64,000 bases of DNA, from positions 5,828,001 through 5,892,000 of the forward strand of contig JANJGN010000026.1 in NCBI GenBank assembly GCA_026770705.1, given 5' to 3'. Under the pieces are notes generated by a model, which saw nothing but the letters and a program-made list of their open reading frames with translations, was not told the origin of the DNA and searched no databases. This document shows positions 1-46,164 of the stretch, piece by piece. The translations under genes and the position numbers were made by a program. The stretch comes from Isurus oxyrinchus. Lineage: Eukaryota. Each line of letters opens with the position of its first letter. Positions within the stretch are counted from its first letter, which is position 1.

Positions 1-3000
1 TGGGTTTCTCCCTCTCTCTCATTTATTAATTAATTCCTCCTCTATTTTCACACTGGGTTCCTGTGTCTTTATTATATTAATTAACTTCCTCCTCTGCATT
101 CTCACTGGGTTGCGCTCCTTTTCTCCAATTTATGAATTATATTCCTCATTGGTTTTCATAATGGGTTGCTCTCTTTCTAATTTATTAATTACATTTGTTC
201 GCTATTTTCACATTGGGTTGCTATCTCTCCCTCGAATTTATTAATTACATACCTGCTGCATTTTCACATTGGGTTGCTCCCTCTATTCTATTATTTACAT
301 TCCTCCTCTCTATTCGGACTTGGTTGCTCTCACTCTCTAATGTATTGAAAACATTTCTCCTCTATTTTACACTAGGTTTCTCTCTCTCTAATTTAGTAAA
401 TACATTCCATCTCTCTTTTCACACTGGGTTGCTCGCACTCGCTCTAATTTGTTAATTACATTCCTCCTCCATTTTTACAATGGGTTGCTCTCTCTCTCTA
501 ATTTATTAAAAACATTCCTCCTCTGATTTCACATTGGATCTCTGACTCTCTAATTTATTAATTACATTGCTCCTATATTTTCACACAGGGTTACTCTCCA
601 TAATTTATTAATTACTTTCCTCCTCTATTGTCACACTGGGTGTCACTATCTCTCTCCCTAATTTATTAATTACATTCCCCCTCCATTTTCACACTGGGTT
701 GCTCTCTCTCTCTCTCTCTCTCTCATTTAGTAATTACATTCCTCCTCTATTTTCACACTGGCGTTTTTTCTGTCTCGAATTTATTAATTGTATTACCCCT
801 CTATTTCCAGGATATGTTTCTCACGCTCTCATATTCAGTACATTCCTCCTTTATTTTCACACTGGGTCTCTCTCACTAATTTACTCATTACATTCCTCCT
901 CAATTTTCACACTGGGTTGCTCCCTCCCTCATTTATTAATTAATTCGTCCTCTATTTTCACATTGGTTTCTCATTCACTCTCTAATTTAAAATTAGATTC
1001 CTCCTCTATTTTCACACCAGGTTATTCACTCTAATGTATTACTTAAATTCCTCCTTTATTTTCACACTGGTTTGCTCTAATTTACTAAATACATTCCTCC
1101 GCTATTTTCACATTTGGTTACTGTCTCTCCCCCTCTCTCTCTAATTTGTTAATTACATTTCTACTCTATTTTCACACTGTGTTACTTTCTCTCTCTCTCT
1201 AATTTATTAATTACATTCTTCAACTGTTTTGACACTGGGACTCTCTCTCTCGTTTATTAATTACATTCCTTCTCTATTTTCACACTGGGTTACTCTCTCT
1301 CTCCCTGATTTATTAATTACATTCCTTCTCTATTTTCACACAGAGTCTCTCTCTCTAATTTTGTCATTACATTCCTCATCTATCTTCACACTGGGTTTTT
1401 CTCACTATTTTATTAAATACATTCCTCCTCCATTTTACACTAGGTTTTTTTCTCTCCCTCTAAATTATTAATTACATTCCATTTCTTTGTTCACACTGTG
1501 TTGCTCTATCCCTCTAAATTATTAAATATATTCCTTCCCTATTTTCAGAATCTGTCTCTAATTTGTTAATTACATTCCTCCTCTATTTTCACACTGGGTT
1601 GCTCTCTCTTATTTGTAAATTACATTCATCCTCCATTTTCACACTGAGTTGCTCTCTCTCTTTCTCTAATTTATTAATTACATTCCTCCTCCATTTTCAC
1701 ACTGGGTTACTCTCTCTCTCTAATTTACTAATTACATTCCTCCTCTATTTTCACACTGGGTTACTCTCTCTCTCTAATTTACTAATTAATTTCCTCCTCT
1801 ATTTTCACACTGGGTTGCTCTCTCTCTCTAATTTACTAAAAGCATTCCTCCTCCGATTTCACAATGGGTCTCTCTCTCTCTAATTTACTGATTAGATTCC
1901 TCCTCTATTTTCGCAATGGATTTCTCTCTCTCTCTCTCTAATTTAACAAATAAATTCCACCTCTATTTTCTGGGTTGTTCTATCTCTCTCATTTATTAAT
2001 TAATTCCTCCTATTTTCAAAGTGGGTTTTTCTCTCATATATTAATCACATTCCTCCTCTATTTTCACATTCGATTAATCTCTTTCTCTAATTTATTAATT
2101 ATGTTCCATGTCTATTTTCACACTGGGTTTCTCTTTCTCTCTAAATTATTAATGACATTCCTCCTCCATTTTGACACTGGGTTTCTCTCTCTCTCTAAAT
2201 TATTACATTCTTCCTCTATTTTCACACTGGTCTACTCCCTCTCTATCTAGTTCATTAATTACATTCCTCCTCTACTTTCACACTGGGTTAATCTCTCTCA
2301 AATTTATTAATTAAATTCCTGCTCTATTGTCATACCTTTTTACTCTCTCTCTCTCATTTATTAAGTCCATTCCTCCTCCATTTCCACAATGCATTGCTCT
2401 CTCTCACTCTCTCTAATTTAATAATTACATTTCTCCTCTATTTTCACACTGGGTTACTGTTTCAAAATTATTAATTACATTGCCCCTCTACTTTCAGGAT
2501 GCGTTTCTCACTCTCTCTTATTCCTCCTTTATTTTCACACGGGGTTGCTCACTCTAATTTATTAATTACATCTGTCCTCTATTTTCACATGGGGTTGCTC
2601 TCTCTAATTTACTTTTTACATTCCTCCTCCATTTTCACACTGGTTTGCTCTCTCCCTCATTTATTAATTAATTCCTCCACTCCTTTCAAATTGGTCTCTC
2701 TATCTCTCTCTCTAATTTATTAAATAATTAATTTATTAATTAAATTCCTCCTCTAATTTCACACTGGGTTGCTCTCTCTTCCTCTAATTTATTAATTACA
2801 TACTTGTTCTATTTTCACACTAGGTTGCTCTCTGTATTTTATTAATTACATTCCTCCTCTATTTTCACACTGGGTTTCTCTCTCTCTAATTTACCCATTA
2901 CATTCCTCCTCTATTTTCAAAGTGGTTTTCTCTCTCTCTAATTTATTAATTAAATTCGTCCTCTATTTTCACACTAGGTTACTGTCTCTCCCTCTCTCTC

Positions 3001-6000
3001 TCTAATTTATTAATTACAATCCTCCTCTGTTTTGATGCTGGGTTAGTCTCTCTCTTGAATTTCTTAATTACATCCCTCTTCTATTTTCACATTGTGTAAT
3101 TCTCTCTCTCTCTCTAATTCATTAATACCATTCCTCCACTATTTTCACACTTGATTACTCTCCCTCTCTAATTTATTAATTAGATTCCTCCACTTTTTTC
3201 ACAATGGGCTACTCTCTCCCTCATTTGTTAATTAGGCTCCTCCTCTGTTTTCACACTGGGTTGCTCACTCTCTAATTTATTAATTACATTCCTCCTCTAT
3301 TTTAACACAGGGCCGCTCTCTCTCCCTCTCTCATATATTAGTTACACTCCTTTACAATTTTCACACTGGGTTACTCACTCTCTCTCTCTCTCCACTTTAT
3401 TATTTACATTCCTCATCTATTTTCACACTAGATTACTGTCTCTCTCTGTTTTATTAATTACATTCCTTCTGTATTTTCACAGAGGATCACTCTGATTTAC
3501 TCATTACATTGCTCCTCTATCTTCACACTGGGTTGCGCGTTCTCTCTCATTTATTAATTAATTCCTCCACTCTTTTCACACTGGGTTTTTCTCTCTCTAA
3601 TATATAAATCACATTCCACCTCCATTTTCACATTTGATTACTCTCGCTCTCTAATTTCTTAATTATATTCCTCCTCTACTTTCACACTGGGTTACACTCT
3701 CACTCTCTAATTTATAAATTGCATTACATGTCTATTTTCACAATGGGTTAATCTCGCTCTAACTTATTATGTTCCCCCTCTACTTTCGCCCTGGGTTTCG
3801 CTCTCTCTCTAATTTATTATTTTAATTGCTCCGGTATTTTCACACAAGGTTACTCTCTCGAATTTATTAATTACATTCCTCCTCTATTTTTACACTGGGT
3901 TTCTCTCTTTCTCTCAATTATGAATCAGATTCCTCCTCTATTTTCACAATGGGTTACTCTCTCTCTATCTACTTCATTAATTACATTCCTCCTCTACTTT
4001 CACACTGGGTAAATCTCTCTCTAATTTATTAATTCCATTCCTCCTCCATTTTCACACTCGGTTACTATCTGTCTTGAAGTTATTGATTAAATTACCAATC
4101 TATTTTCAGGATGCATTTCTCACTCTCTCTTATTCAGTACATTCCTCCTCTATTTTCACACTGGGTCGGTCTCTCTAATTTACCTATTATATTCCTCCGC
4201 CAATTTCACACACTAATTTCCCTCCCTCGTTTATTAATTAATTCCTCCTCTATTTTCAGGTTGGTTTTTCTCTCTCTCTCTCTAATTTATTAATTACATT
4301 CCTCCTCAATTTTCACGCTAGGTTTATCTCTTTGCTCTAATTTATTAATTCCATTCCTCCTCCATTGTCACACTGGGTAACTCTCTCTCTGTAATTTATT
4401 AATTACATTTCTCCTCCATTTTCACACTGGGTTACTTTCTCTCTCTAATTTATTTATTACTTTCCTCCTCTATTTTCACACTGTGTTGCTCTCTCCCTCA
4501 TTTGTTAATTAATTCCTTCCCTATTTTCAGATTGGTTTCTCTTCCTCTCTCTTTCTAATTTGTTAATTACATCCCTTTATTTTCACACTGGGTTATTCTC
4601 TCTCTCTAATTTATTAAAAACATTCCTCCTCTATTTTCACACTGGGTTGCTCTCTCTCTCTCTCTAATTGATTACTTACATTCCTCAACTATTTTCACAA
4701 CGGGTTGCTCTCTTTCTCTCTCATTTATAAATTACATTCCTCCTCGATTTTCGCCCTGGGTTTCGCTCTCTCTAATTTATTACTTACATTGCTCCTGTAT
4801 TTTCAGACAGGGTTACGCGCTCAAATTTATTAATTACATTCCTCCTCTATTTTCACACAGGGTTTCTCTCTCTACCTTATTAATTATATTCCTCCCCTAT
4901 TTTCACACTGGGCTGCTCTCTTTCTCTCTCATTTATAAATTACATTCTTCCTCTATTTTCACACTGGGTTGTTCTCTCTCTATTTAGTTCATTAATTAAA
5001 TTCCTCCTCTACTTTCACACTGGGTTAATCTCTCTCTCTCTAGTTAATTAACTACATTCCTCTTCTACTTTCACACGGGGTTGCTCTCTCTAATTTATTA
5101 ATTACATTCGTCCTCTAATTTCACACTGGGTTACTCTCTCTAATTTACCCATGACATTCCCCCTCTATTTTCACACTGGGTTGCTCTCTCCTTCATTTAT
5201 TAATTATTCCTCCTCTATTTTCAGATTGGTTTCTCTCCCTCTATCTCGCTAATTTACTAATTAATTCCTCCTCTAATTTCACACTGGTTTAATCTCTAAT
5301 TTAGTAATTATATTCCTCATCTATTTTCACATTGGGTTGCTCTCTCTTCCTCTAATTTATTAGTTCTATACCTGCTCCATTTTCACACTGGGTTGCTCAC
5401 TGTATTTTATTAATTACATTCGTCCTCTATTTTCACACTGCATTACTTTCTCTCCCTCTCTCGCTCTAATTTATTAAATACAATTTTGCTCTATTTTCAC
5501 AGTGGGTTATTCTCTCCCTCTCTAATTTATTAATAACATTCCTCCTCTATTTTCACACTTGATTAGTCTCCCTCTCTAAATTAATTATTACATTCCTCCC
5601 TTATTTTCACAATGGGTTACTCTCTCTCTCTAAATTATTATTTACATTGCTCTTGTATTTTCACAATGGGTTACTCTCTCGAATTTATTAATTACATTCC
5701 TCTATTTTCACATTGGGTTGCTCTCTCTTCCTCTAATTTATTAATTACATACCAGCTCCACTTTCACACTGGGTTGCTCTCTCTAATTTATTAATAACAT
5801 TCCTCTTCTATTGTCACACTGGATTGCTTTTTCTCTTGAATTGATAATTACAATCCTCCTCTATTTTCACATGGGGTTACTATCTGTCTTGAATTAATTA
5901 ATTACATTACCCCTGTATTTTCAGGATGCGTTTCTCACTCTCTCTTATTCAGTACATTCCTCCTCTATTTTCATACTGGGTTACTCTCTCTAATGTATTA

Positions 6001-9000
6001 ATTACTTTCATCCCCTATTTTCACACCGGGTGGCTCTCTCTAATTTACTCATTACATTCCTCCTCTATTTTCAAACTTGTTTGCTCTCTCCCTCATTTGT
6101 TAATTAATTCCTCCTCTATCTTCACATTGGTTTCTCTCTCTCTAATTTATTAATTAGATTCCTGCTCTATTTTCACACACGGTTACTCTCTCTAATTTAT
6201 TAATTATATTCATCCTCTATTTCACACTGGGTTGCTCTCTCTCCCTCTAGTTTATTAATTACATACCTGCTGCATTTTCACACTGGGTTGCTCTCTCTAT
6301 TTTATTAAGTACATTCCTCCTCTATTTTCACAATGGATTATGTCTCTCCCTCTCACTCTCTAATTTACTTATTACAATCCTCCTCTATTTTGACACAGGG
6401 TTAGTCTCTCTCTCTCTCTCTCTCTAATTTATTAATTACTTTCCTCCTCTATTCTCACACTAGGTTACTCTCTCTCTCTCTCTGATTTATTAATTACATT
6501 CTTTTTCTATTTTCACACAGGGTCTCTTGCTCTAATTTAGTTATTACAATCCTCCTCTATCTTCACAATGAGTTGCTCTATCTCCCTCATTTTGTAATTA
6601 ATTCCTGCATTTTCACAATGGTTTTTTCTCTCTCTAATCTATTAATCACATTCCTCCTCTATTTTCATATTTGATTACTCTCTCTAATTAATTTACCAAT
6701 TATATTCCTCCTCTACTTTCACACCTGGTTACACTGTCTCTGTTTAATTTATTAATTACATTCCATGTCTATTTGCACACTGGGTTGCTCTTTCTCTAAA
6801 TTATTAATGGAATTCCTCCTCTATTTTCACACTGGGTTACTCTCTCTCTAAATTGTTACATTCCTCCTCTATTTTCGCATTAGGTTTCACTCTTTCTGTA
6901 ATTTATCAATTACATTGCTCCTATATTTTCACACAGGGTTACTCTCTCTAATTTATTAATTATGTTCCTCTATTTTCACACTGGGTTCCTCTCTCTCTCT
7001 CTCATTTATTAATTAATTACTCCTCTATTTTCACAATGGGTACTCTCTCTAAGTTATTAATTACATTCCTCCTCTATTTTCACACTGGGTCACTCTCTCT
7101 CTAATTTATTAATTACATTCCTCCTCTATTTTCACGCTGGGTTGCTCCCTCTGATTTATTAATTTTATTTTGCCTCCATTTTCTCACTGGGTTACTCGCA
7201 CTCTCTCTTATTTATTAATTACATTCAGCCTCTATTTTCACACTGGTTTCTCTCTCTCTCTCTCTCTAATTTATTAATTAGGTTCCTCCTCTACTTTCAC
7301 ACAGGGTTTCTCTCTCTCTCTAAATCTTTTTACATTCCTCTATTTTCAAACTGACTACTCTCTATCCTACTTATTAATTTCATTCCTCCTCTATTTTCAC
7401 AGTGGGCTACTCTCTCTCTAATTTGTTAATTACATTCCTCCTCTATTTTCACACTGGGTTACTCCCTCTTTCTCTCTTTATTTTATGAGTTACATTCCTC
7501 CTCCAATTTCACAATGGGTTACTCTGTCTCTCTAATTTATTAATTACATTCCTCTATTTTCACACTGGGCTACTCTCTCTAATTTATTAATTGTATTCCT
7601 CCTCTATTTTCACACTGGGTCACTCTCTCTAATTTATTAATTACATTCCTCCTCTATTTTCACACTGATTACTCTCTCTCTCTCTTACTTATTAATTTAA
7701 TTTCTCCTCTATTTTCACACTGGGTTACTTGCTCTCTAATTTATTAATTACATTCCTCCTCTATTTTCACACTGTGTTGCTCTCTCCCTCATTTGTTAAT
7801 TAATTCCTTCCCTATTTTCAGATTGGTTTCTCTCCCTCTCTCTTTCTAATTAATAATTACATCCCTCTATTTTCACACGGGGTTATTCTCGCTCTCTAAT
7901 TTATTAATAACATTCCTCCTCTATTTTCACACTGGGTTAGTCTCTCTCTCTCTCTAATTGATTACTTACATTCCTCATCTATTTTCACAATAGGTTGCTC
8001 TCTTTCTCTCTCATTTATGAATTACATTCCTCCTCTATTTTCGCCCTGGATTTCGGTCTCTCTAATTTATTATTTACATTGCTCCTGTATTTTCAGACAG
8101 GGTTACGCGCTCAAATTTATTAATTACATTCCTCCTCTATTTTCACACTGGGTTTCTCTGTCTACCTTATTAATTACATTCCTCCCCTATTTTCACACTG
8201 GGCTGCTCTCTTTCTCTCTCATTTATGGATTACATTCCTCCTGTATTTTCACACTGGGTTGTTCTCTCTCTCTCATTTATGAATTACATTCTTCCTCTAT
8301 TTTCACACTGGGTTACTCTGTCTCTATTTAGTTCATTAATTAAATTCCTCCTCTACGTTTATACTGGGTTAATCTCTCTCTCTCTCTCTAGTTAATTAAC
8401 TACATTCCTCTTCTACTTTCACACGGGGTTGCTCTCTCTAATTTATTAATTACATTCGTCCTCTATTTTCACACTGGTTTACTCTCTAATTTAGTAATTA
8501 TATTCCTCCTCTATTTTCACATTGGGTTGCTCTCTCTTCCTCTCATTTATTAATTCCATACCTGCTCCATTTTCACACTGGGTTGGTCACTGTATTTTAT
8601 TAATTACATTCCTCCTCTATTTTCACACTGCATTACTTTCTCTCCCTCTGTCTCTCTAATTTATTAATAACATTCCTCCTCTATATTCTCACTTGATTAG
8701 TCTCCCTCTCTAATTTAATTATTACATTCCTCCCTTATTTTCACAATGGGTTACTCTCTCTCTCTAAATTATTATTTACATTGCTCCTGTATTTTCAGAA
8801 TGGGTTACTTTCTCGAATTTATTAATTACATTCCTCTATTTTCACATTGGGTTGCTCTCTCTTCCTCTAATTTATTAATTACGTACCTGCTCCACTTTCA
8901 CACTGGGTTGCTCTCTCTAATTTATTAATAACATTCCTCCTCTATTGTCACATTGGATTGCTTTCTCTCTTGAATTGATAAATTACAATCCACCTCTATT

Positions 9001-12000
9001 TTCACATGGGGTTACGATCGGTCTTGAATTAATTAATTACATTGCCCCTGCATTTTCAGGATGCGTTTCTCATTCTCTATTATTCAGTACATTCCTCCTC
9101 TATTTTCATACTGGGTTACTCTCTCTAATGTAATAATTACTTTCATCCTTTATTTTCACACTGGGTGAATCTCTCTAATTTACTCATTACATTCCTCCTC
9201 TATTTTCAAACTTGTTTGCTCTCTCCCTCATTTGTTAATTAATTCCTCCTCTATCTTCACATTGGTTTCTCTCTCTCTAATTTATTAATTAGATTCCTGC
9301 TCTATTTTCACACACGGTTACTCTCTCTAATTTATTAATTATATTCATCCTCTATTTCACACTGGGTTGCTCTCTCTCCCTCTAGTTTATTAATTACATA
9401 CTTGCTGCATTTTCACACTGGGTTGCTCTCTCTATTTTATTAAGTACATTCCTCCTCTATTTTCACAATGGATTACGTCTCTCCCTCTCACTCTCTAATT
9501 TACTTATTACAATCCTCCTCTATTTTGACACAGGGTTAGTCTCTCTCTCTCTCTCTAATTTATTAATTACTTTCCTCCTCTATTCTCACACTAGGTTACT
9601 CTCTCTCTCTCTCTGATTTATTAATTACATTCTTTTTCTATTTTCACACAGGGTCTCTTGCTCTAATTTAGATATTACAATCCTCCTCTATCTTCACAAT
9701 GAGTTGCTCTATCTCCCTCATTTTGTAATTAATTCCTGCATTTTCACAATGGTTTTTTCTCTCTCTAATCTATTAATCACATTCCTCCTCTATTTTCATA
9801 TTTGATTACTCTCTCTATCTAATTTACCAATTATATTCCTCCTCTACTTTCACACCTGGTTACACTGTCTCTGTTTAATTTATTAATTACATTCCATGTC
9901 TATTTGCACACTGGGTTGCTCTTTCTCTAAATTATTAATGGAATTCCTCCTCTATTTTCACACTGGGTTACTCTCTCTCTAAATTGTTACATTCCTCCTC
10001 TATTTTCGCATTAGGTTTCACTCTTTCTGTAATTTATCAATTACATTGCTCCTATATTTTCACACAGGGTTACTCTCTCTAATTTATTAATTATGTTCCT
10101 CTATTTTCACACTGGGTTCCTCTCTCTCTCTCTCATTTATTAATTAATTACTCCTCTATTTTCACAATGGGTACTCTCTCTAAGTTATTAATTACATTCC
10201 TCCTCTATTTTCACACTGGGTCACTCTCTCTCTAATTTATTAATTACATTCCTCCTCTATTTTCACGCTGGGTTGCTCCCTCTGATTTATTAATTTTATT
10301 TTGCCTCCATTTTCTCACTGGGTTACTCGCACTCTCTCTTATTTATTAATTACATTCAGCCTCTATTTTCACACTGGTTTCTCTCTCTCTCTCTCTAATT
10401 TATTAATTAGGTTCCTCCTCTACTTTCACACAGGGTTTCTCTCTCTCTCTAAATCTTTTTACATTCCTCTATTTTCACACTGACTACTCTCTATCCTACT
10501 TATTAATTTCATTCCTCCTCTATTTTCACAGTGGGCTACTCTCTCTCTAATTTGTTAATTACATTCCTCCTCTATTTTCACACTGGGTTACTCCCTCTTT
10601 CTCTCTTTATTTTATGAGTTACATTCCTCCTCCAATTTCACAATGGGTTACTCTGTCTCTCTAATTTATTAATTACATTCCTCTATTTTCACACTGGGCT
10701 ACTCTCTCTAATTTATTAATTGTATTCCTCCTCTATTTTCACACTGGGTCACTCTCTCTAATTTATTAATTACATTCCTCCTCTATTTTCACACTGATTA
10801 CTCTCTCTCTCTTACTTATTAATTTAATTTCTCCTCTATTTTCACACTGGGTTACTTGCTCTCTAATTTATTAATTACATTCCTCCTCTATTTTCACACT
10901 GTGTTGCTCTCTCCCTCATTTGTTAATTAATTCCTTCCCTATTTTCAGATTGGTTTCTCTCCCTCTCTCTTTCTAATTAATAATTACATCCCTCTATTTT
11001 CACACGGGGTTATTCTCGCTCTCTAATTTATTAATAACATTCCTCCTCTATTTTCACACTGGGTTAGTCTCTCTCTCTCTCTCTAATTGATTACTTACAT
11101 TCCTCATCTATTTTCACAATAGGTTGCTCTCTTTCTCTCTCATTTATGAATTACATTCCTCCTCTATTTTCGCCCTGGATTTCGGTCTCTCTAATTTATT
11201 ATTTACATTGCTCCTGTATTTTCAGACAGGGTTACGCGCTCAAATTTATTAATTACATTCCTCCTCTATTTTCACACTGGGTTTCTCTCTCTACCTTATT
11301 AATTACATTCCTCCCCTATTTTCACACTGGGCTGCTCTCTTTCTCTCTCATTTATGGATTACATTCCTCCTGTATTTTCACACTGGGTTGTTCTCTCTCT
11401 CTCATTTATGAATTACATTCTTCCTCTATTTTCACACTGGGTTACTCTGTCTCTATTTAGTTCATTAATTAAATTCCTCCTCTACGTTTATACTGGGTTA
11501 ATCTCTCTCTCTCTCTCTAGTTAATTAACTACATTCCTCTTCTACTTTCACACGGGGTTGCTCTCTCTAATTTATTAATTACATTCGTCCTCTATTTTCA
11601 CACTGGTTTACTCTCTAATTTAGTAATTATATTCCTCCTCTATTTTCACATTGGGTTGCTCTCTCTTCCTCTCATTTATTAATTCCATACCTGCTCCATT
11701 TTCACACTGGGTTGGTCACTGTATTTTATTAATTACATTCCTCCTCTATTTTCACACTGCATTACTTTCTCTCCCTCTGTCTCTCTAATTTATTAATAAC
11801 ATTCCTCCTCTATATTCTCACTTGATTAGTCTCCCTCTCTAATTTAATTATTACATTCCTCCCTTATTTTCACAATGGGTTACTCTCTCTCTCTAAATTA
11901 TTATTTACATTGCTCCTGTATTTTCAGAATAGGTTACTTTCTCGAATTTATTAATTACATTCCTCTATTTTCACATTGGGTTGCTCTCTCTTCCTCTAAT

Positions 12001-15000
12001 TTATTAATTACGTACCTGCTCCACTTTCACACTGGGTTGCTCTCTCTAATTTATTAATAACATTCCTCCTCTATTGTCACATTGGATTGCTTTCTCTCTT
12101 GAATTGATAAATTACAATCCACCTCTATTTTCACATGGGGTTACGATCGGTCTTGAATTAATTAATTACATTGCCCCTGCATTTTCAGGATGCGTTTCTC
12201 ATTCTCTATTATTCAGTACATTCCTCCTCTATTTTCATACTGGGTTACTCTCTCTAATGTAATAATTACTTTCATCCTTTATTTTCACACTGGGTGAATC
12301 TCTCTAATTTACTCATTACATTCCTCCTCTATTTTCAAACTTGTTTGCTCTCTCCCTCATTTGTTAATTAATTCCTCCTCTATCTTCACATTGGTTTCTC
12401 TCTCTCTAATTTATTAATTAGATTCCTGCTCTATTTTCACACACGGTTACTCTCTCTAATTTATTAATTATATTCATCCTCTATTTCACACTGGGTTGCT
12501 CTCTCTCCCTCTAGTTTATTAATTACATACTTGCTGCATTTTCACACTGGGTTGCTCTCTCTATTTTATTAAGTACATTCCTCCTCTATTTTCACAATGG
12601 ATTACGTCTCTCCCTCTCACTCTCTAATTTACTTATTACAATCCTCCTCTATTTTGACACAGGGTTAGTCTCTCTCTCTCTCTCTAATTTATTAATTACT
12701 TTCCTCCTCTATTCTCACACTAGGTTACTCTCTCTCTCTCTCTGATTTATTAATTACATTCTTTTTCTATTTTCACACAGGGTCTCTTGCTCTAATTTAG
12801 ATATTACAATCCTCCTCTATCTTCACAATGAGTTGCTCTATCTCCCTCATTTTGTAATTAATTCCTGCAGTTTCACAATGGTTTTTTCTCTCTCTAATCT
12901 ATTAATCACATTCCTCCTCTATTTTCATATTTGATTACTCTCTCTATCTAATTTACCAATTATATTCCTCCTCTACTTTCACACCTGGTTACACTGTCTC
13001 TGTTTAATTTATTAATTACATTCCATGTCTATTTGCACACTGGGTTGCTCTTTCTCTAAATTATTAATGGAATTCCTCCTCTATTTTCACACTGGGTTAC
13101 TCTCTCTCTAAATTGTTACATTCCTCCTCTATTTTCGCATTAGGTTTCACTCTTTCTGTAATTTATCAATTACATTGCTCCTATATTTTCACACAGGGTT
13201 ACTCTCTCTAATTTATTAATTATGTTCCTCTATTTTCACACTGGGTTCCTCTCTCTCTCTCTCATTTATTAATTAATTACTCCTCTATTTTCACAATGGG
13301 TCACTCTCTCTCTAATTTATTAATTACATTCCTCCTCTATTTTCACGCTGGGTTGCTCCCTCTGATTTATTAATTTTATTTTGCCTCCATTTTCTCACTG
13401 GGTTACTCGCACTCTCTCTTATTTATTAATTACATTCAGCCTCTATTTTCACACTGGTTTCTCTCTCTCTCTAATTTATTAATTACATTCCTCCTCTATT
13501 TTCACGCTGGGTTGCTCCCTCTGATTTATTAATTTTATTTTGCCTCCATTTTCTCACTGGGTTACTCGCACTCTCTCTTATTTATTAATTACATTCAGCC
13601 TCTATTTTCACACTGGTTTCTCTCTCTCTCTCTCTAATTTATTAATTAGGTTCCTCCTCTACTTTCACACAGAGTTTCTCTCTCTCTCTAAATCTTTTTA
13701 CATTCCTCTATTTTCACACTGACTACTCTCTATCCTACTTATTAATTTCATTCCTCCTCTATTTTCACAGTGGGCTACTCTCTCTCTAATTTGTTAATTA
13801 CATTCCTCCTCTATTTTCACACTGGGTTACTCCCTCTTTCTCTCTTTATTTTATGAGTTACATTCCTCCTCCAATTTCACAATGGGTTACTCTGTCTCTC
13901 TAATTTATTAATTACATTCCTCTATTTTCACACTGGGCTACTCTCTCTAATTTATTAATTGTATTCCTCCTCTATTTTCACACTGGGTCACTCTCTCTAA
14001 TTTATTAATTACATTCCTCCTCTATTTTCACACTGATTACTCTCTCTCTCTTACTTATTAATTTAATTTCTCCTCTATTTTCACACTGGGTTACTTGCTC
14101 TCTAATTTATTAATTACATTCCTCCTCTATTTTCACACTGTGTTGCTCTCTCCCTCATTTGTTAATTAATTCCTTCCCTATTTTCAGATTGGTTTCTCTC
14201 CCTCTCTCTTTCTAATTAATAATTACATCCCTCTATTTTCACACGGGGTTATTCTCGCTCTCTAATTTATTAATAACATTCCTCCTCTATTTTCACACTG
14301 GGTTAGTCTCTCTCTCTCTCTCTAATTGATTACTTACATTCCTCATCTATTTTCACAATAGGTTGCTCTCTTTCTCTCTCATTTATGAATTACATTCCTC
14401 CTCTATTTTCGCCCTGGATTTCGGTCTCTCTAATTTATTATTTACATTGCTCCTGTATTTTCAGACAGGGTTACACGCTCAAATTTATTAATTACATTCC
14501 TCCTCTATTTTCACACTGGGTTTCTCTCTCTACCTTATTAATTACATTCCTCCCCTATTTTCACACTGGGCTGCTCTCTTTCTCTCTCATTTATGGATTA
14601 CATTCCTCCTGTATTTTCACACTGGGTTGTTCTCTCTCTCTCATTTATGAATTACATTCTTCCTCTATTTTCACACTGGGTTACTCTGTCTCTATTTAGT
14701 TCATTAATTAAATTCCTCCTCTACGTTTATACTGGGTTAATCTCTCTCTCTCTCTCTAGTTAATTAACTACATTCCTCTTCTACTTTCACACGGGGTTGC
14801 TCTCTCTAATTTATTAATTACATTCGTCCTCTATTTTCACACTGGTTTACTCTCTAATTTAGTAATTATATTCCTCCTCTATTTTCACATTGGGTTGCTC
14901 TCTCTTCCTCTCATTTATTAATTCCATACCTGCTCCATTTTCACACTGGGTTGGTCACTGTATTTTATTAATTACATTCCTCCTCTATTTTCACACTGCA

Positions 15001-18000
15001 TTACTTTCTCTCCCTCTGTCTCTCTAATTTATTAATAACATTCCTCCTCTATATTCTCACTTGATTAGTCTCCCTCTCTAATTTAATTATTACATTCCTC
15101 CCTTATTTTCACAATGGGTTACTCTCTCTCTCTAAATTATTATTTACATTGCTCCTGTATTTTCAGAATGGGTTACTTTCTCGAATTTATTAATTACATT
15201 CCTCTATTTTCACATTGGGTTGCTCTCTCTTCCTCTAATTTATTAATTACGTACCTGCTCCACTTTCACACTGGGTTGCTCTCTCTAATTTATTAATAAC
15301 ATTCCTCCTCTATTGTCACATTGGATTGCTTTCTCTCTTGAATTGATAAATTACAATCCACCTCTATTTTCACATGGGGTTACGATCGGTCTTGAATTAA
15401 TTAATTACATTGCCCCTGCATTTTCAGGATGCGTTTCTCATTCTCTATTATTCAGTACATTCCTCCTCTATTTTCATACTGGGTTACTCTCTCTAATGTA
15501 ATAATTACTTTCATCCTTTATTTTCACACTGGGTGAATCTCTCTAATTTACTCATTACATTCCTCCTCTATTTTCAAACTTGTTTGCTCTCTCCCTCATT
15601 AATTAATTAATTCCTCCTCTAGCTTCACATTGGTTTCTCTCTCTCTCTAATTTATTAATTAGATTCCTGCTCTATTTTCGCACACGGTTACTCTCTCTAA
15701 TTTATTAATTAAATTCATCCTCTATTTCACACTGGGTTGCTCTCTCTCCTTCTAATTTATTAATTACATACTTGCTGCATTTTCACACTGGGTTGCTCTC
15801 TCTATTTTATTAAGTACATTCCTCCTCTATTTTCACAATGGATTATGGTCTCTCCCTCTCACTCTCTAATTTATTTATTACAATCCTCTTCTATTTTGAC
15901 ACTGGGTTAGTCTCTCTCTCTCTCTAATTTATTAATAACATTCCTCCTCTATTTTCACACTAGGTTACTCTCTCTCTCTCTGATTTATTAGTTACATTCT
16001 TTTTCTATTTTCAGACAGGGTCTCTCGCTCTCATTTAGTTATTACAATCCTCCTTTACCTTCACAATGAGTTGCTCTATCTCCCTCATTTTGTAATTAAT
16101 TCATGTATTTTCACAATGGTTTTTTCTCTCTCTAACCTATTAATCATATTCCTCCTCTATTTTCATATTTGATTACTCTCTGTATCTAATTTATCAATTA
16201 CATTCCTCCTCTACTTTCACACTTGGTTACACTGTCTCTCTTTAATTTATTAATTACATTCCATGTCTATTTGCACACAGGGTTGCTCTTTCTCTAAATT
16301 ATTAATGACATTCCTCCTCTATTTTCACACTGGGTTACTCTCTCTCTAAATTATTACATTCCTCCTCTATTTTCGCATTGGGTTTCACTCTTTCTGTAAT
16401 TTATCAATTACATTGCTCCTATATTTTCACACAGGGTTACTCTCTCTAATTTATTAATTATGTTCCTCTATTTTCACACTGGGTTCCTCTCTCTCTCTCT
16501 CTCATTTATTAATTAATTACTCCTCTATTTTCACAATGGGTTACTCTCTAAGTTATTAATTACATTCCTCCTCTATTTTCACACTGGGTCACTCTCTCTC
16601 TAATTTATTAATTACATTCCTCCTCTATTTTCACTCTGGGTTGCTACCTCTGATTTATTAATTTTATTTTGCCTCCATTTTCTCACTGGGTTACTCGCAC
16701 TCTCTCTAATTTATTAATTACATTCAGCCTCTATTTTCATACTGGTTTCTCTCTCTCTCTCTCTAATTTATTAATTAAGTTCCTCTTCTATTTTCACTCA
16801 GGGTTTCTCTCTCTCTATTTTTTTTTACATTCCTCTATTTTCACACTGACTACTCTCTCTCTTACTTATAAATTTCATTCCTCCTCTATTTTCACAGTGG
16901 GCTACTCTCTCTCTAATTTCTAGTTTCACACTTATTTGCTCTCTCCCTAATTTGTTAATTACATTCCTCCTCTATTTTCACACTGGGTTACTCCCTCTTT
17001 CTCTCTCTATTTTATGAGTTACATTCCTCCTCCAATTTCACAATGGGTTACTCTGTCTCTCTAATTTACTATTTACATTCCTCTATTTTCACACTGGCTT
17101 ATTCTCTCTAATTTATTTATTACATTCCTCCTCTATTTTCACACTGGGTCACTCTCTCTAATTTATTAATAACATTCCTCCTCTATTTTCACACTGGGTT
17201 ACTTTCTCTCTCTCTGATTTATGAATTATGTTCTGCCTCCACTTTCTCACTGGGTAACTCGTGCTATCTCTAATTTATGAATTACTTTCCTCCTCTATTT
17301 TCACACAGGGTTTCTCTCTCTCTTTATTTTTTTTTTACATTCCTCTATTTTCACACTGATTACTCTCTCTCTCTTACTTGTTAATTTAATTTCTCCTCTA
17401 TTTTCACACTGGGTTACTTGCTCTCTAATTTATTAATTACATTCCTCCTCTATTTTCGCACTGGGTTACTCTCTCTCTAAATTATTAATTCCTCCTCTAT
17501 TTTCGCATTGGGTTTCACTCTTTCTGTAATTTATCAATTACAGTGCTACTATATTTTCACACAGGATTACTCTCTCTAAGTTATTAATTACATTCCTCTA
17601 TTTTCACACTGGGCTCCTCTCTCTCTCTCATTTATTGATTAATTACTCCACTTTTTTGACACTGGGTTTTACTTTCTCTCATTTATTCATTACAATCCAC
17701 CTCTATTTTCACACTGGGTTGCTCTCTCTCTCTCATTTATCAATTAAGTACTAATCTATTTTCACAATGGGTTACTCTCTCTAATTTATTAATTGCATAC
17801 CTCCTCTATTTTCACACATATTTGCTTTCTCTAATTTGTTATTTACATTCCTCCTCTATTTTCACACCGGGTCACTCTCTCTCTAATTTATTAACTACAT
17901 CCCTCCTCTATTTTTACACTGGGTTACTCTCTCTCTAAATTATTACATTCCTCCTCTATTTTCGCATTGGGTTTCACTCTTTCTGTAATTTATCAATTAC

Positions 18001-18908
18001 GTTGCTCCTATATTTTCACACAGGGTTACTCTCTCTAATTTATTAATTACGTTCCTCTATTTTCACACTGGGTTTCTCTCTCTCTCATTTATTGATTAAT
18101 TACTCCTCTTTTTTGACACTGGGTTTTACTTTCTCTCATTTATTCATTACATTCCACCTCTATTTTCACACTGGGTGGCTCTCTCTCTCTCATTTATCAA
18201 TTAATTACTCATCTATTTTCACAATGGGTTACTCTCTCTAATTTATTAATTACATTCCTCCTGTATTTTCACACTGGGTTGCTCTCTCTGATTTATTAAT
18301 TTTATTTTGCCTCCATTTTCTCACTGGGTTACACGCACTCTCTCTAATTTATTAATTACATTTAGCCTCTATTTTCACACCTGTTTCTCTCTCTCTCTCT
18401 CTAATTTATTAATTACGTTCCTCCTCTATTTTCACACAGGGTTTCTCTCTCTCTATTTTTTTTACATTCCTCTATTTTCACACTGACTACTCTCTCTCTT
18501 ACTTATTAATTTCGTTCCTCCTCTATTTTCACACTGGGCTACTCTCTCTCTAATTTATTAATTACATGCCTCCTCTATTTTCACACATATTTGATCTCTC
18601 TAATTCGTTAATTACATTCCTCCTCTATTTTCACACTGGGTTACTCTGTCTCTCTAATTTATTAATTACATTCCTCTATTTTCACACTGGGTTACTCTCT
18701 CTAATTTATTAATTACATTCCTCCTCTATTTTCACACTGGGTCACTCTCTTCCTCTAATTCATGAATTACATTTCTCCTCTTTTTCCACACTGGGTTACT
18801 CTCTCTCTCTAATTTATTAATTACATTCCTCCTCTGTTTTCACACTGTTTTGTTCTCCCTCTCTCTCTAATTTACTAATTACATCCCTCCTCTATTTTCA
18901 CACTGGGT
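1..18908. repeat. Satellite array, ~50-54 bp monomer with variable internal (CT)n; higher-order repeats of ~3.1-3.3 kb
   Basis: Continuous repetition of consensus TTTTCACACTGGGTTACTCTCTCTCTAATTTATTAATTACATTCCTCCTCTA. Near-identical ORF translations recur at 8017/11146/14385 and 10301/13540/16669 (spacings 3129 and 3239). The array runs off the left edge of the window. Confidence 0.97.
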
Positions 18909-19215
18909 ATCTCACCCTCTGCTGTACATGAGAATTTTGTATGCGCGCGCAGTTCATTCCCTCTTGTGATGTCAGACGCTTTAATCGCTCGCCCGTCGCG
19001 ATACATCCGTCAGATACCCCGCCGGTCTTTTTGACGCCCCTGGAATCCGCTACTTCCGGTCCCTTGCTTACCCACAATGGCGGTGGTGTTGATCTGTTTT
19101 GGAGCCAGATGGCGCGGTCAGGGCGCGTCCTAACTCGCCCTGGCACTGTGGGGAGATGCCCAGGCTTTTGTGCGGCTTGGTCGGAGTCAGCTTCTGTGGG
19201 TCATCTCAGACGGAG
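18909..19215. promoter_or_regulatory. Small CpG-rich island with promoter-type motifs
   Basis: Abrupt rise in GC and CpG between two AT-rich blocks. Motifs: TGCGCGCGCA (NRF1-like, 18942-18951), TCGCGA (~18996), ACTTCCGG (ETS/GABPA, 19052-19059), AATGGCGG (YY1-like, ~19076). Confidence 0.4.
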
Positions 19216-19489
19216 AATTATCCCTATTTTTTTTTAATTAGCCAGAGGGAAATTGACAATCGTCAATTAACCATTAACATCCTCTAAACTGATAAATGAT
19301 CAAAAATACTAATTAATTCCCCCAAATATTATCATAATCCAAAATTCAGCAATTTAACTGAGGTATCCTGAATCTTTCTATCTGATAATTGCAATTTAAT
19401 GCTTCAATTCATCATTTGGCAGGTTTAATTTCAACATTAAATCCACATCATGTCAATATCTATTTAATTTCATTCAAATGTAAACACAT

Positions 19490-20450
19490 TTAATGTTAAT
19501 ATTTATATTAAACTTACATTTACCCCAAATGAACAATTTAATAATCATATTCAGTTTAAATTTGTGTTCGTTCTGTGAATAAACCTATGGACGGATTTAA
19601 TTGCAACGTTTAAGGCTCATTGATCAGTTTGTCCACATTCGTGTTTTTTTTCCCCTGTCGATTTATCACATTTAATCATCATATTTAAACATGTTTGTTT
19701 TTTCTGTCAATTCACGTTTTATTATTAATATTTACTTTGTCTATAAGTGCCTCATATCAAATGGCACATTTAGCCTAAAGTAGAGTTTGTTCAGTCAATT
19801 AACATATTTAATAATTAGACTTACTTTACCTAAACTTGCATTTGTTCCGTCAGTTAACATATTTAATAATTAGATTTAATTTTTCTAAACTTGTATTTTT
19901 TCTGTCAGTTAACATATTTAATAATAAGACTCACTTTATCTAGGCTTACATTTGTTTTGTCAGTTAACATATTTAAAATGAGATTTAATTCATCTAAACT
20001 GGCATTTGTTCTGTCGTTGAAGCTATTTAGTATTCGTCTTCACGTTGTCTAAACTTGAGTCTTCTGCCAAAGAATATAGTTAGTGCTAATATTAAATTCG
20101 CTCAATTCGTGCTGTTTCCTGTTGATTAGCACAGTAATCATATCTTAAACGTGTTTACTCTGTCAATGTATGTATGTAATATTAATATGTATCTAAACTT
20201 GCGTTTGAATCAATTGGCAGATTTAATAATCATATTCCATTTAAACTTGCACTTATTCTGTTAATTCAATTTAATATCTGTTGGTCTTTCTTTTCATTTT
20301 CAAATTTAATATCTCTTCGCTCATTTATTTATTTTTGATATCTGTCTGTCAATTAACATATTTAATCACTTTTACTTTATCTAAACTTCTGGTTGTTCTG
20401 TCACTTAATGCTATACAATTTGGCTAAACTTGTTGCCACCTACCAATTAA
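19490..20450. repeat. AT-rich degenerate 55-bp tandem repeat
   Basis: Units like CTAAACTTGCATTTGTTCTGTCAGTTAACATATTTAATAATTAGATTTAATTTTAT start at 19830, 19885, 19940, 19994 and 20049, with more decayed copies on either side. Confidence 0.75.
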
Positions 20451-20679
20451 TATAACTTTTCAGCCGAATTGTTGAATTTTGATGTTGAATTTCATATCTT
20501 TTGCTAGATATTTCATTTCAGTAGCAATTTTCATATATTTTGAAAATTACTCAACTTGAGAATTACATTTAATATCTTTTGACATACGCATTTTCAATAT
20601 TCTGTTTAATTTCTTTTGGCAGGTCAATTTTCAATTTCAAATTTAATAATGGTTTAGTTTCTTTGCATAACCCACCATC

Positions 20680-20830
20680 TCCAGCTCCTATGCCAGAATG
20701 TTCAGCTGCGAATCCTGCCTTCCTTCATCCAAGTCTCAGTGATGGCTACTATATCACAATCCCACGTGTTAATCCTCACCCTTAACTCATCAGTTTTACC
20801 TGTAATACTCCTGTCATTAAAGTTGAGGCC
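20680..20830 (-). mobile_element. CR1-clade LINE ORF2 endonuclease fragment
   Basis: Minus strand reads RSITGKTDELRVRINTWDCDIVAITETWMKEG, the N-terminal APE motif typical of CR1 ORF2. Confidence 0.75.
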
Positions 20831-20859
20831 ATCCAGCCTTGCCTTACTCCCTTGAAGCT

Positions 20860-22990
20860 TAATACAGACATAGAGGATGGTTATATCAAGTAAAAATTAC
20901 AACAGAATGAAACTGCCCGAGATGCGCAAAAATGAAAGCATGCGATTTCTCCACTTCTCCAACTCTGTGTTATCCTGATTGTCTTCATTGTTCTTGTCCG
21001 GAGTCTCCTGCGGGCTCAGTTGACAGCTGGAATTGCCTGATGGACTTAGCGGTGAGCAGCAAAATCAGAATGAATGGGAGAAAAGGGTTAATGTGGGTTG
21101 AATTCAGTCATTGCGGCCCATGCAGGTAGTTTTTAAAATGTTACCTTTATAATGCAGAAACAAGGTGTATTATTAATTCTGTACATACGTCCATACGAAA
21201 AGTAAATGCTTTGTTTTATTGTTCCACAGGGCAATACAACCACGGTTCCCGCGTTCTCGGTGTAATTTAGGGATTGCAGCCGTTCATGAAGGTAGCTCAC
21301 CACCACCTTCTCAAGGGCAGTTAGGGACGGGCAATAGGCAGCGATTCCCACTTCCCATGAATGAATATTAACAAACAATATTTTGTCTTCAACATCTGGA
21401 AAGAAATGCGTATAAAACGACGGTTTCCATGTAGAAATGTAAATGACACCCAAACTCAAAGCAAGCGGAAAACTGCATACTGGCGTGATAGACAACAAAC
21501 TGAATGGAACACAAATTTCAGCAACCCCGTTTAACATCACCGCCATGACCATGACCCGGAGACCTGTCACCGCCAATCAACACCATGTAATAATGTAGTG
21601 AGAGATCAAACGTTATTTGAGACAGGATTACAAGCACTGCTAAGTATATCTGCGTGAGACAGGGCAAGGGCAGGAAAGTAATTGATTCTAATTGCAACAT
21701 AATAAAGGGAGAAGGAGAGAGCCTGAGAGGGAGAGTTGCAAGTCATCAACTATGTTGTTGGTATTTGTTTTTGTGTCCAAAACAAACATCCGAATGAACG
21801 TAAATCAGGTAAAATGCAAAGTAATATAAAATTATATAATTAGTTAAAGCGCCGAACAAGAAGGGGTAGCAAAAATCTTGAAACCAGAACGCGAATGTCG
21901 GCTAACCAAAGAGAATTTCACATCAGTAATCAATAAAAGAACAAATGCAAAAGATGGCATTCAACTTTTTCAATCAAACCATCAAGCAGAAGGAGCTGAA
22001 TAGACAATTACTGTTTCACTGAGTTTGCGGAGGAATTGTTGAATGGGAAGCATGTCGCAGGAAGGACCTTTGGTGTTTACTTGAATCATTGGAACTGGTA
22101 CATGATGAGGTCGCATTTGGAGAAAGGAACTCCTGCAATGAAACACTGTTTGTTAACACTTCGGTGCGAACCAACATCCCTTCAATAAATTCATTCATTA
22201 AATTCAGCCAGGAAACGTTCAATGACTCAAATCTCAAATTTAGTTAATCATTTGTATAAATTATTCTGCCAGTGTAGAAGCGAATGGCACAATATTTGCA
22301 CATGTACACAGTCATAACAATGTGATAACTCAGCCACAGTTACAGTGGCAGCAATATACTGCATCCATAGTTGTACCGTGATAACGGTGTGTCAATTCAT
22401 TAGCAGGAACAGTGTCAACAACTAAAACACTTCCACATGTACATTACGATAACAGTGTGATAATTTACCTTCAGTAACAGCGCCATTGACATAATAGGAC
22501 ACCATTCACAATGCGAGAGCTATGATATTTCATCACTGTCAACATGAAAATTCAATTGCATTTAGATCATGTAATAGTGTTATTTGGAAAGTGGATTTAT
22601 ATAATTAAAGCATTAAAATTGTATCAGTCACAGGAATATACTATAAATTCAGATGAGAAATTATAAAGCTAATGTCAAGATTGATGCTGATATTAAATGG
22701 CATTGTAAAAGTGGAAAAATGTACACAATCAATACCGAAAAAAAAGTTACTGGAGAAATTGTACCATGTAAAAGGCAGGAATTAAAACGGTGAATGGGGA
22801 AAATGCATCACAAATTGGAGAAAGGACACACGTAATGTGGAGATGCGCTATAGGTAAAATGGACAAAAATAATACAGCCAGCTAATGATCCTTGCCGCTA
22901 CTGACTTTCAAGGACTTTACCTGGAATTCCGATAGCTCCAATTACGGGATAGTAAATGGCAAAAACCAGGCCTGTTGGTACCCCGTGCAT
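20860..22990 (-). pseudogene. GPR139/GPR142-like GPCR pseudogene, two exons (exon 1 22990-22921; exon 2 from 21649)
   Basis: Exon 1 = MHGVPTGLVFAIYYPVIGAIGIP + G|GTAAAG (70 nt, same length and phase as the intact paralogue). Exon 2 follows cgcag| and gives fragments YLAVLVILSQ, AVMLNGVAEICVPFSLLSITPVCS, QMLKTKYC, MYRINNTPCFCIIK, PFLPFILILLL and ISGSFILL*, with frameshifts, stops, a LINE-tail insertion and no TM7. Confidence 0.88.
21270..21376 (+). mobile_element. 5'-truncated LINE 3' tail inserted into GPCR pseudogene exon 2
   Basis: TGCAGCCGTTCATGAAGGTAGCTCACCACCACCTTCTCAAGGGCAGTTAGGGACGGGCAATA...ATGAATGAAT. The same tail is at 50530-50697 and, inverted, at ~27.3 and ~29.8 kb. It splits the receptor sequence between ...KYC and TE... 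Confidence 0.8.
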
Positions 22991-23249
22991 TTCTAACTGA
23001 AGCTCTGCGTGCGTTCCACAATTCACTGGAAATGGTCAAAGTTATACCTCTTGATAGTCTCCAGGGGAAAAAAAATGTTGAATTGACTTTTTGTTTTAAT
23101 TAATGTGACTGTAACAAACAGATCAGTGCAGCTGTAGCTTGGCTGGTGGTTACGTTTTGATGGAAAATGTTCATTTCTTTTCTCAGGGGTCCTAACAAAG
23201 GGGTTTAAAGTGAATAACACGACGACTGCTATTACTTACTTTGAAAAAA

Positions 23250-24300
23250 AGGATGAATGCCCAGATTTCGGGTTCAGGCCAAAGTACTGAGCAATGCATG
23301 TTTTTTCCCAAAACCCAGACAGATTCTAAATCTTATTCATTAATCAGTCAGTGCTGTCCAAAATCAGATGCACAATTGTTCCAAATATCTCTCAGATTTT
23401 ACAGCCACGTTAGCGCAACAGTCTGCGTATTCATTGCGTCAGGCCCTGTTAAGCACTGTTGCATTCTGTGCGAAGAGTTTCAATTCCTCACCAACAATTC
23501 AGTACAGGCTTGCCCAGGCCATTGTCAGTTTACGCCATGTTGCGAGATACACTTCACGGTGAACCGGTCCAATAGAACTTCGTTACGTTCTGTGTGAACA
23601 TAGCCATAGCTTACGCTCACCTTCGTTGCCGATATGGTCTGTTTCCGTGTGCAATTTCAGTGAACTCTGCACCAGTTCAGCACAGGCAGATTCTGTATGT
23701 GCAGATCCAGAGCAAGTAATTCCATTCATGATGGACCATTTTAATTCAATGATGGGACCATGCATATATTCTGCAAAAGGTCGCCTTCAGCATACGTATA
23801 TGTTTTGTGCTTCTATCCAATTACGTACGTTTATATTCAATGCGGCCTGACCCTTGTTTAAATCAGGACACTTATATTCAGCTGGGTAAGCTATAACTCA
23901 GTATAGTGCGGTTCAACAATCCTATTGTCATTGTCGACTTGTGCAGCTTGCATTCTAAAGTTTTCGAGTAATTTCCTTGGCTCCTTTCCTTTTACTGTTG
24001 AGGGAGATGGCAGACAGCTCTGTCAAGAAACTTACTGTTTTGAAATTAGCCTTGAACCCAAAGCGAAATATTTCCAGTTGGAAAAGATGTTAATGGATTT
24101 CGCGCAAATACTTCATATCTGATAAGTGCCCGCGTGATCTGTACTGCTCTGCAGATGAGAACTGGGAATGCAAAACTGAAATCGAAACTCATTTTAGATA
24201 TCGATTTACAGCTTCTGATCTGTTTCAGCTGGGAGAATAATACTGCTACAGAACACAAAAGCAGTTCTTCTGGTGAGAATCAGAGTTACGATTTCCATGA
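23250..24300 (-). pseudogene. Possible heavily decayed ribonuclease-inhibitor-type LRR (NLR-like) coding relic
   Basis: Scattered minus-strand peptides FLTELSAISLNSKRKGAKEITRKL*NASC, LDRSTKHIRMLKATFCRI, HTESACAELV..HIGNEGERKL, IVGEELKLFAQ and ADCCANVA..LEQLCI resemble LRR-RI units. Many stops and frameshifts, so the match is weak. Confidence 0.25.
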
Positions 24301-44940: not shown

Positions 44941-45000
44941 GCTACAGGCGTTCTGGTTCTGAAGGTGAAGTTCTGCTTGACTCTCACGTCTGTTTCACAG

Positions 45001-45309
45001 TTCCCCCCTCATTCCACAATCCAGAAATTACACTACTACAACCACGAATAGAACAGATCTTACTGGAGGCAACAGCGACCTCAATCTTAATCGTAACTAA
45101 TGCCCCTCGTGGAGACAAAGTTTCCTGGAACGAGGAACAGGAGCCTTTGAAATCAGAGGTTTCCGTCCAAACGGGTGACAGCCCTAACAGCGTGGTGAGC
45201 AACGTGAACATCTCAACACAAGCCTGGCTGAGTGGGGCTCAGTTCTACTGCGTGCTGAGCCAGCAGGTTCTGCCAACCTCTTTAAGACATTCCAGCCACA
45301 AGGAATGAG
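45001..45309 (+). pseudogene. IGHM: Immunoglobulin mu heavy chain CH3 exon (pseudogene)
   Basis: Acceptor tttcacag|, then [101 protein letters not shown], closely matching shark IgM CH3. The first Cys is lost and TGA at 45306-45308 precedes the G|GT donor. Confidence 0.93.
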
Positions 45310-45816
45310 GTGTTTGCTCAGATTGAAGCAATGAGAGAACCATTGTGTCTATTTCCGGTGTAAGTGTATGGGTTACTTTTGAACTGTACCATCCATTAAT
45401 CGACTACTCGGACTATTCAACTGGTCATTCCGCAGATAAACTCCCTGGAGACATAGATCATTCGGATAACGGGAAGATGGATAAATGGATGAATGAAAGA
45501 GGAAGTGAAGGATATGGCATGAGGTGTAGATGACGTAAAGCGGGAAGTGCCTTGTGTGAGCTGAAACACCAGCACAAACAAGTTGGGCCGAATGGACTTT
45601 AACTGTGCTCAGAACTCTAACTTTACAGTTCAGCAGTTTAAGTTCTCATAGAGGAGGATAGCGTATACATTTGCTCCTGGTTAGAAAATCGAACGGAGCC
45701 CGGGAGGAAAACCTTTAAAATTCATGGCGAATCACGTTTCATTCACATCTTACCACCAGTTGCATTGTCCCTGGAATTGTCCAATTTTTTAAACATTTTT
45801 GTAAAATTTTATGCAG

Positions 45817-46164
45817 TTAAATATCCACGGAAACCGTCCGTCGCCGTCCTCCTGCCCCCGGCTGAAGAAGTCTCCGTTCAGAGATTCATCTCCCTCAGCT
45901 GCTAAGTAAGAGGTTTCTCCCCCGGAGAGATATTCTTCAAGTGGACCGTCAATGACAAGCCGGTCAATCCGGGGAACTACAAGAACACCGAGGTGATGGC
46001 GGAGAACTGCAATAACTCCTTCTTCATGTACAGCCTGTTATCCATTGCAACGGAGGAGTGGGCCAGCGGCGCTTCTTACTCGTGTGTGGTGGGACATCAA
46101 GCGATTCCCTTGAAGATCATCAACAGAACGGTTGATAGATCCAGCGGTTAATTCATGTCAATGA
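45817..46164 (+). pseudogene. IGHM: Immunoglobulin mu heavy chain CH4 exon plus remnant secretory tail (pseudogene)
   Basis: Acceptor atgcag|, then [109 protein letters not shown], i.e. shark IgM CH4. TAA at 45903-45905; out-of-frame VNSCQ* at 46147-46164. Confidence 0.95.

Follow-up and report, generated by a model that had tools for sequence, protein, structure and literature searches.

Local expansion, likely by unequal crossing-over, of a higher-order repeat block beside a promoter-like lectin-family element in Isurus oxyrinchus

Introduction

Whether an ordered multi-monomer repeat marks a centromere or records the local turnover of a tandem array is the question raised by a block of four ~3-kb units in the genome of the shark Isurus oxyrinchus (4.98-Gb assembly GCA_026770705.1). 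The block lies in a tandem array of ~53-bp monomers and was analysed within a 64,000-nucleotide stretch of contig C26 (JANJGN010000026.1; C26:5,828,001-5,892,000), referred to below as the window. A preliminary description made from the window alone had taken the block for a centromere-style higher-order repeat (HOR) with a homogeneous core and disordered flanks, organised like primate alpha-satellite. The analysis reported here favours, at a probability of about 0.8, a local expansion, likely by unequal crossing-over, in a 34-kb array upstream of a promoter-like element of a lectin family, the block being likely non-centromeric.

Results

Architecture of the array and the four-unit block

The whole array was found to span 33.7 kb and 626 monomers, its upstream start lying 14.8 kb ahead of the window, and the 354 monomers cut from the part inside the window (mean length 53 bp) were arranged as follows.

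1-18920 (+): array of ~53-bp monomers, last 18.9 kb of 33.7 kb, C/T-rich on the plus strand, with a variable (CT)n tract
4470-7760 (+): older duplicate copy 1, 62 monomers in two halves, 1a (4470-6064) and 1b (6065-7760), common to the sister array described below
7761-10887 (+): additional unit H1, a 2a/1b hybrid of 59 monomers and 3,127 bp, missing from the sister array
10888-14126 (+): additional unit H2, likewise a 2a/1b hybrid, of 61 monomers and 3,239 bp, with a net two-monomer insertion near 13,300-13,600
14127-17449 (+): older duplicate copy 2, 62 monomers, halves 2a (14127-15567) and 2b (15568-17449), no parent switch, used as the control
17450-18920 (+): right flank, 28 monomers, carrying a 9-monomer duplication and further small ones, most nearest relatives being in the block or in the right flank itself

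A 40-mer diagnostic for the block occurs exactly four times, at 4482, 7773, 10900 and 14139 (spacings 3291, 3127 and 3239), matching the variant that the preliminary description had seen recurring near 4483, 7773, 10901 and 14140; the monomer counts of the units (62, 59, 61 and 62, in order) and the inner spacing of 3127 likewise bear out its estimate of ~60 monomers amplified as a ~3.13-kb block. Its remark that neighbouring monomers are diverged and the central copies almost identical was also correct: within a unit, adjacent monomers average 75% identity (range 64-92%), and over 3,127 aligned bases the inner units H1 and H2 show 5 substitutions, besides a (CT) indel and the net two-monomer insertion, a likeness far beyond that expected by chance. 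The block is an HOR in the formal sense, with diverged monomers in a fixed order and a much higher identity from unit to unit.

The homogeneous core with diverged edges and the disordered flanks of that description were not recovered. The near-identical part (6065-15567) comprises 179 of the 626 monomers (29% of the 33.7-kb array) and lies off-centre near the downstream end, at 62-90% of the array length, the outer two units being 3.6-5.7% diverged from each other. Duplications of 9, 27, 31, 40 and about 140 monomers were found in the flanks, and a near-identical partner exists for 50% of the right-flank monomers versus 14% of the in-window left-flank monomers. Left-flank monomers have their nearest relatives further upstream and right-flank monomers in the block, neither flank being nearest to the other, and the distance to the medoid monomer is equal for block and flank monomers (7.9-9.2 edits).

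A sister array with the earlier state

A sister array of 28.6 kb and 530 monomers was located 165 kb upstream of the window's array, inside a head-to-tail duplication of ~175 kb (98-99% identity; junction at C26:5,701,284). The two arrays are colinear monomer for monomer save for a 59-monomer segment (sister monomers 407-465), which is present once in the sister array and three times in the window's array, and the arrays with their flanks differ by 0.5-0.9%. An older duplication of about 62 monomers is common to both; its copy 1 (1a, 1b) and copy 2 (2a, 2b) are 5.6-6.1% and 3.6-3.7% diverged, and copy 1 of the window differs from copy 1 of the sister by 0.5-0.7% substitutions. The sister array carries its own 22-27-monomer multiplications at other places. 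The ~175-kb duplication (5,525,938-5,872,143, ending at window position 44,143) is itself nested with a second head-to-tail duplication of 66 kb and the same 98-99% identity (C26:5,411,913-5,544,022).

Hybrid inner units

Along the window the halves follow one another as 1a1b, 2a1b, 2a1b and 2a2b. The position at which each unit changes parent was mapped by painting the informative copy-1/copy-2 sites along the units, which gave the following intervals.

9170-9232 (+): H1 switch from copy-2-type to copy-1-type letters, the presumed crossover; last copy-2 site 9169, first copy-1 site 9233
12299-12361 (+): H2 switch in the same interval; last copy-2 site 12298, first copy-1 site 12362

Both hybrids switch parent within one homologous 64-bp interval, and no parent switch was found at the painted informative sites of terminal copy 2. 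A few isolated sites disagree with the painting, and one discordant copy-2-type site stands in the 1b half of both hybrids (9402 and 12531). A hybrid with one switch point in homologous register is the signature of unequal crossing-over. The three 2a halves are 2 substitutions apart in 1,439 and 10 from the sister array, nine letters being common to all three and absent from the sister, while the three 1b halves are 3-9 substitutions apart in ~1,688 and 8-11 from the sister array. Because the extra units are closer to each other than to the sister array, the gain of units postdates the split of the arrays.

These observations are consistent with a course in which, after the split, copy 2 on one chromatid would have aligned out of register with copy 1 on a different chromatid and an exchange inside the 64-bp interval would have added H1. 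H2 would come from a second exchange, by then between identical units, and its two further monomers from slippage. The window's copy would be a gene remnant without lectin exons, and its array could hence drift in length; the same process at other offsets would leave blocks of many sizes, as in every array examined. A date for H1 versus H2 of about a million generations was too rough to be used, the mutation rate coming from another species (7e-10 per base per generation; PMC10587355).

The opposite course, in which an ancestor with four units lost two in the sister array and gene conversion kept the window's units alike, would be helped by the discordant site common to both hybrids and by the readiness of unequal exchange to delete as well as to add. 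It is nevertheless very improbable, as the sister array lacks the nine letters common to the 2a halves, these halves are 2 substitutions apart versus 10 from the sister, and a single switch interval serves both hybrids.

Distribution of the repeat family and the centromere question

Exact matches to the monomer in the assembly numbered 3,425 for a 32-mer and 7,990 for a 24-mer, with none of either on C1-C25, since both lists begin on C26 and that of a control LINE pattern begins on C1. Six large arrays of the 53-bp family, five on C26 (105, 29, 34, 193 and 59 kb) and one on C180 (about 170 kb, a figure that includes 10 kb without fetched sequence), hold 3,232 of the 32-mer and 4,003 of the 24-mer matches; the remaining 24-mer matches comprise 1,024 in sampled small arrays and 2,963 without an assigned location. 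The family was estimated at roughly 1.1 Mb, or about 0.02% of the assembly, a figure that collapsed or unassembled arrays would escape.

The unit of the block proved private to this locus: 2,099 of its 3,068 60-mers were found in the sister array and 0 of 3,068 in the remaining four large arrays or further upstream within the window's own array. No dominant period was present in the 59-, 105-, ~170- and 193-kb arrays (top period ≤4% of positions), which carry many unrelated block sizes, and the exact 24-mer is found in 44-63% of the monomers of larger arrays versus 7% in the window's array. The largest and most homogeneous arrays of the family are those at C26:7,358,276-7,551,142 (193 kb) and C180:832,427-1,004,000 (about 170 kb), in both of which recent block duplications of many sizes abound; the C180 array and the 59-kb array have upstream flanks that are 95% identical. 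The CENP-B box, a criterion that may not apply outside mammals, had 0 matches at ≤1 mismatch on either strand of the 626 monomers.

Like the primate alpha-satellite HOR, the block is built of diverged monomers whose fixed order forms a near-identical larger unit, with variants that differ by whole monomers, a feature ascribed to unequal crossing-over in passages of PMC5052062. An alpha-satellite-like centromeric core, or an array that is the relic of one, would fit this formal structure (monomers 75% alike, units >99% alike), the position of the 105-, 193- and 59-kb arrays within 4 Mb of C26, the greater homogeneity of the larger arrays, and the possibility that satellites are collapsed in assemblies. 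However, the window holds four copies in 13 kb, and alpha-satellite units are described in the same passages as repeating hundreds to thousands of times over megabases. The unit is confined to one array and lies off-centre, and neither side carries an older layer around a core, the block standing at 62-90% of the array between flanks that are not nearest to each other and have an equal medoid distance. The family is also restricted to few contigs, where alpha-satellite is abundant on most chromosomes, and its arrays are fixed in position at a promoter-like cassette. With the CENP-B box and exact matches on C1-C25 both missing and the family at about 0.02% of the assembly, a centromeric core is extremely unlikely. 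The HOR of the preliminary description thus stands in the formal sense, and its centromere-like organisation (four copies, one array, off-centre, no symmetric layers being what was found) and the centromeric role that it had raised are both unsupported. If the family has any such role, the 193-kb and C180 arrays may be the best candidates, and a larger family array elsewhere on C26 may yet be centromeric.

The promoter-like element and the lectin-type gene family

The local expansion, likely by unequal crossing-over, lies in an array that ends at a CpG-rich element; two features follow from the array end.

18921-19250 (+): CpG-rich promoter-like element abutting the array end, GC 57%, CpG observed/expected ratio (o/e) 1.0, with motif matches
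19251-20689 (+): AT-rich sequence, 73-78% alike to lectin-gene copies; the similarity stops at its end and no lectin exon follows

The CpG o/e of 1.0 in the element compares with 0.28 in the array, and its motifs are ones that we take to be NRF1-, GC-box-, ETS- and YY1-like. At least 40 copies of the element were listed, of 68 candidates, on C26, C39, C41, C56, C153 and C317, and in many of them, on all of these contigs, an array abuts the CpG-rich element in one orientation. An array lies directly upstream on the same strand in 20/20 fetched copies (of the 40 listed), with lengths of 2.5 kb to >7.5 kb, the range over the family being 2.5 kb to 193 kb; conversely, of the array ends found via the repeat, 8/10 stop at the element in the same orientation. 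The motif counts among the copies, 24-27 of 28, are a partly built-in result because the copies were picked by the NRF1-like motif and the upstream array. A tree of the elements separates C26, C41 and C39/C56/C153/C317 groups and gives no direction because it is unrooted.

A same-strand lectin-domain exon was found 14-25 kb downstream in 19/40 copies and upstream in 1/40. Downstream of the C39 and C41 copies the order is a short first coding exon, membrane anchor, neck and two lectin-domain exons, and the best solved-structure matches of the lectin exons include mincle, CLEC4A, CLEC10A and CD94. The family is presumably akin to the type II membrane C-type lectin receptor clusters (CLEC4/CD209/NK-complex type), which have the same succession of short N-terminal exon, membrane anchor, neck and lectin-domain exons; unlike them, the window's copy is reduced to the array, the promoter-like element and a further 1.4 kb. 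About 45 close copies of one lectin-domain exon were seen on C39, C41, C56, C153 and C317, often as convergent gene pairs of two subfamilies with a common promoter-like element and first exon, and C43 carries a further lectin-domain family.

A stretch of 832 kb around the window yielded no lectin exon, and the window's copy resembles the lectin cassettes only up to 20,689; it appears to have lost its lectin exons and would be a gene remnant. Beyond the 193- and 59-kb arrays incomplete sets of exons follow, one of which contains a stop. The longest arrays would thus sit on gene remnants, but these are few and all on one scaffold, too narrow a set to assign a cause.

The human insulin variable number tandem repeat (VNTR) is a promoter-proximal minisatellite. 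Like it, the shark array consists of tandem units of tens of bases immediately upstream of a putative promoter and varies in length from copy to copy; unlike it, the shark array is found on at least 20 paralogous promoter-like copies and grows from 2.5 kb to satellite size at 193 kb. Hidden micro-exons in the array were considered and rejected, TTTCAG standing at an acceptor-like position in 30/626 monomers only, and the minus strand offering no pyrimidine tract and spacers of about 33 nt. No Rfam match to a structured RNA was obtained in 17,000-24,000.

Neighbouring features

Two orphan IgM-type constant exons lie at window 44,940-46,148 (+), 26 kb downstream of the array, the first without its first cysteine and the second with an in-frame stop upstream, and a 93% inverted copy of them is present at C26:6,043,362. 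An immunoglobulin switch-like region was rejected as an identity for the array, as most listed IgH-like exons on C26 fall at 24-40 Mb and no V-D-J signal set was found near the array. The IgH-like exons form many clusters, a pattern that points to a cartilaginous fish. The locus at C26 about 5,759,700-5,764,200 (-), made up of a leader exon, a V exon that is frameshifted and already fused to a J-like segment, and a single C1 exon with UrIg2 among its top structure matches, is a non-rearranging antigen-receptor-like pseudogene. At window 35,665-36,627 (-) a long open frame encodes a rhodopsin-family seven-transmembrane domain, with paralogues on C26 at 5.40, 5.69, 5.80, 6.00 and 6.05 Mb. Further tandem repeats are a 54-bp repeat at window 57,506-60,137, a repeat of about 58 bp (C26 5,808,700-5,813,160) that borders the 53-bp array on its upstream side, and an unrelated repeat with a period near 3.9-4.0 kb at C26:5,260,001-5,272,000, just before the 105-kb array.

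Discussion

Several points weigh against the reading of the block as a local, likely non-centromeric expansion by unequal crossing-over beside a lectin-family promoter-like element. The four-unit block is known from the assembly sequence, and from sequence a meiotic crossover, a sister exchange and break-induced replication would be indistinguishable. On the side of the gene link, the arrays on C180 and at C317:622,811 end away from a promoter-like element, and 21/40 copies of the element have no listed lectin exon within 35 kb (two of those lead to a second lectin subfamily, 32% identical). The lectin exons are weak in Pfam Lectin_C (E 0.0003-0.03; 15.5-22 bits against a cut-off of 22.6, for single exons), and the promoter itself is putative, being called from CpG content, motifs and downstream exons. 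The ~175-kb junction is bridged by no contig or read among the records listed, and the Illumina depth of a second individual on the duplication flank was 0.48x per run (24/30 bins, 6 repeat or multicopy bins having been dropped), where 0.38x is expected for one copy and 0.76x for two. Because of this unbridged junction and depth, the sister array may be an allele; in that case the block would be a length polymorphism, produced by the same mechanism.

The same unbridged junction, the depth nearer one copy than two and the near-identity of the inner units could also be taken to mean that the inner units, or the whole 175-kb duplication, are artefacts of assembly, through an over-expanded repeat or alleles set in tandem. 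Against this, private substitutions mark each of the units, H2 has a two-monomer insertion of its own, and neither the arrays nor the head-to-tail junction, where 4 bases are shared, contains an N gap. The contigs of one sample carry both sister-type letters (35/39 listed differences) and window-type letters (31/32 listed). One contig breaks off precisely at the junction, as if at a fork, and another runs on into the alternative continuation. The gapless junction and the private changes per unit favour real sequence, and an artefact is judged a slim prospect; were the sister array an allele, the mechanism would still stand.

For the preferred reading, local expansion by unequal crossing-over, the closest parallel is in maize, where satellites commonly carry small HORs of local extent and low frequency that bear no relation to CENH3 position (passages of PMC13011684). 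As in the CentC and knob arrays of those passages, for whose repeated units unequal crossing-over is proposed, the shark arrays contain locally confined block duplications of varied size, with no dominant unit and presumably no relation to centromere position. They differ from the maize satellites in that the window's array is built of a vertebrate 53-bp monomer, with one 59-monomer unit and a mappable exchange point, and in that the shark arrays are tied to a gene promoter-like element. Passages of the zebra shark genome paper report more simple tandem repeats on short chromosomes and mention centromeres only in a reference (PMC10620051). No publication on the 53-bp repeat or on shark satellite higher-order structure was found, most subscription literature lying outside the search, and nothing fitting was found in the literature on satellites born at promoters.

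A wider proposal, to which we give little credence as a whole, starts from a shark lectin-receptor promoter that would have retained the 53-bp array as a cis-regulatory or boundary module, limited to a few kb beside working genes; freed on gene remnants, on a scaffold with immunoglobulin clusters, the array would have given rise to a satellite that grew to 29-193 kb and is building higher-order blocks, the largest array possibly being that chromosome's centromere. An ancestral linkage of Ig/TCR and NK-complex lectin genes has been proposed (passages of PMC10751288).

The block probably represents ordinary satellite turnover by a known mechanism, with a curious promoter link and probably without a centromeric role; its higher-order structure is no sign of a centromere. 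It shows the known process cleanly: with the earlier state still visible in the sister array, the origin of a higher-order unit is traceable to a 64-bp interval of exchange. What most deserves following is the promoter link: one repeat standing before dozens of paralogous promoter-like elements, at lengths of 2.5 to 193 kb, forms a natural series suited to asking how satellites develop out of minisatellites linked to genes, and whether lectin-gene expression is tuned by the length of the array.

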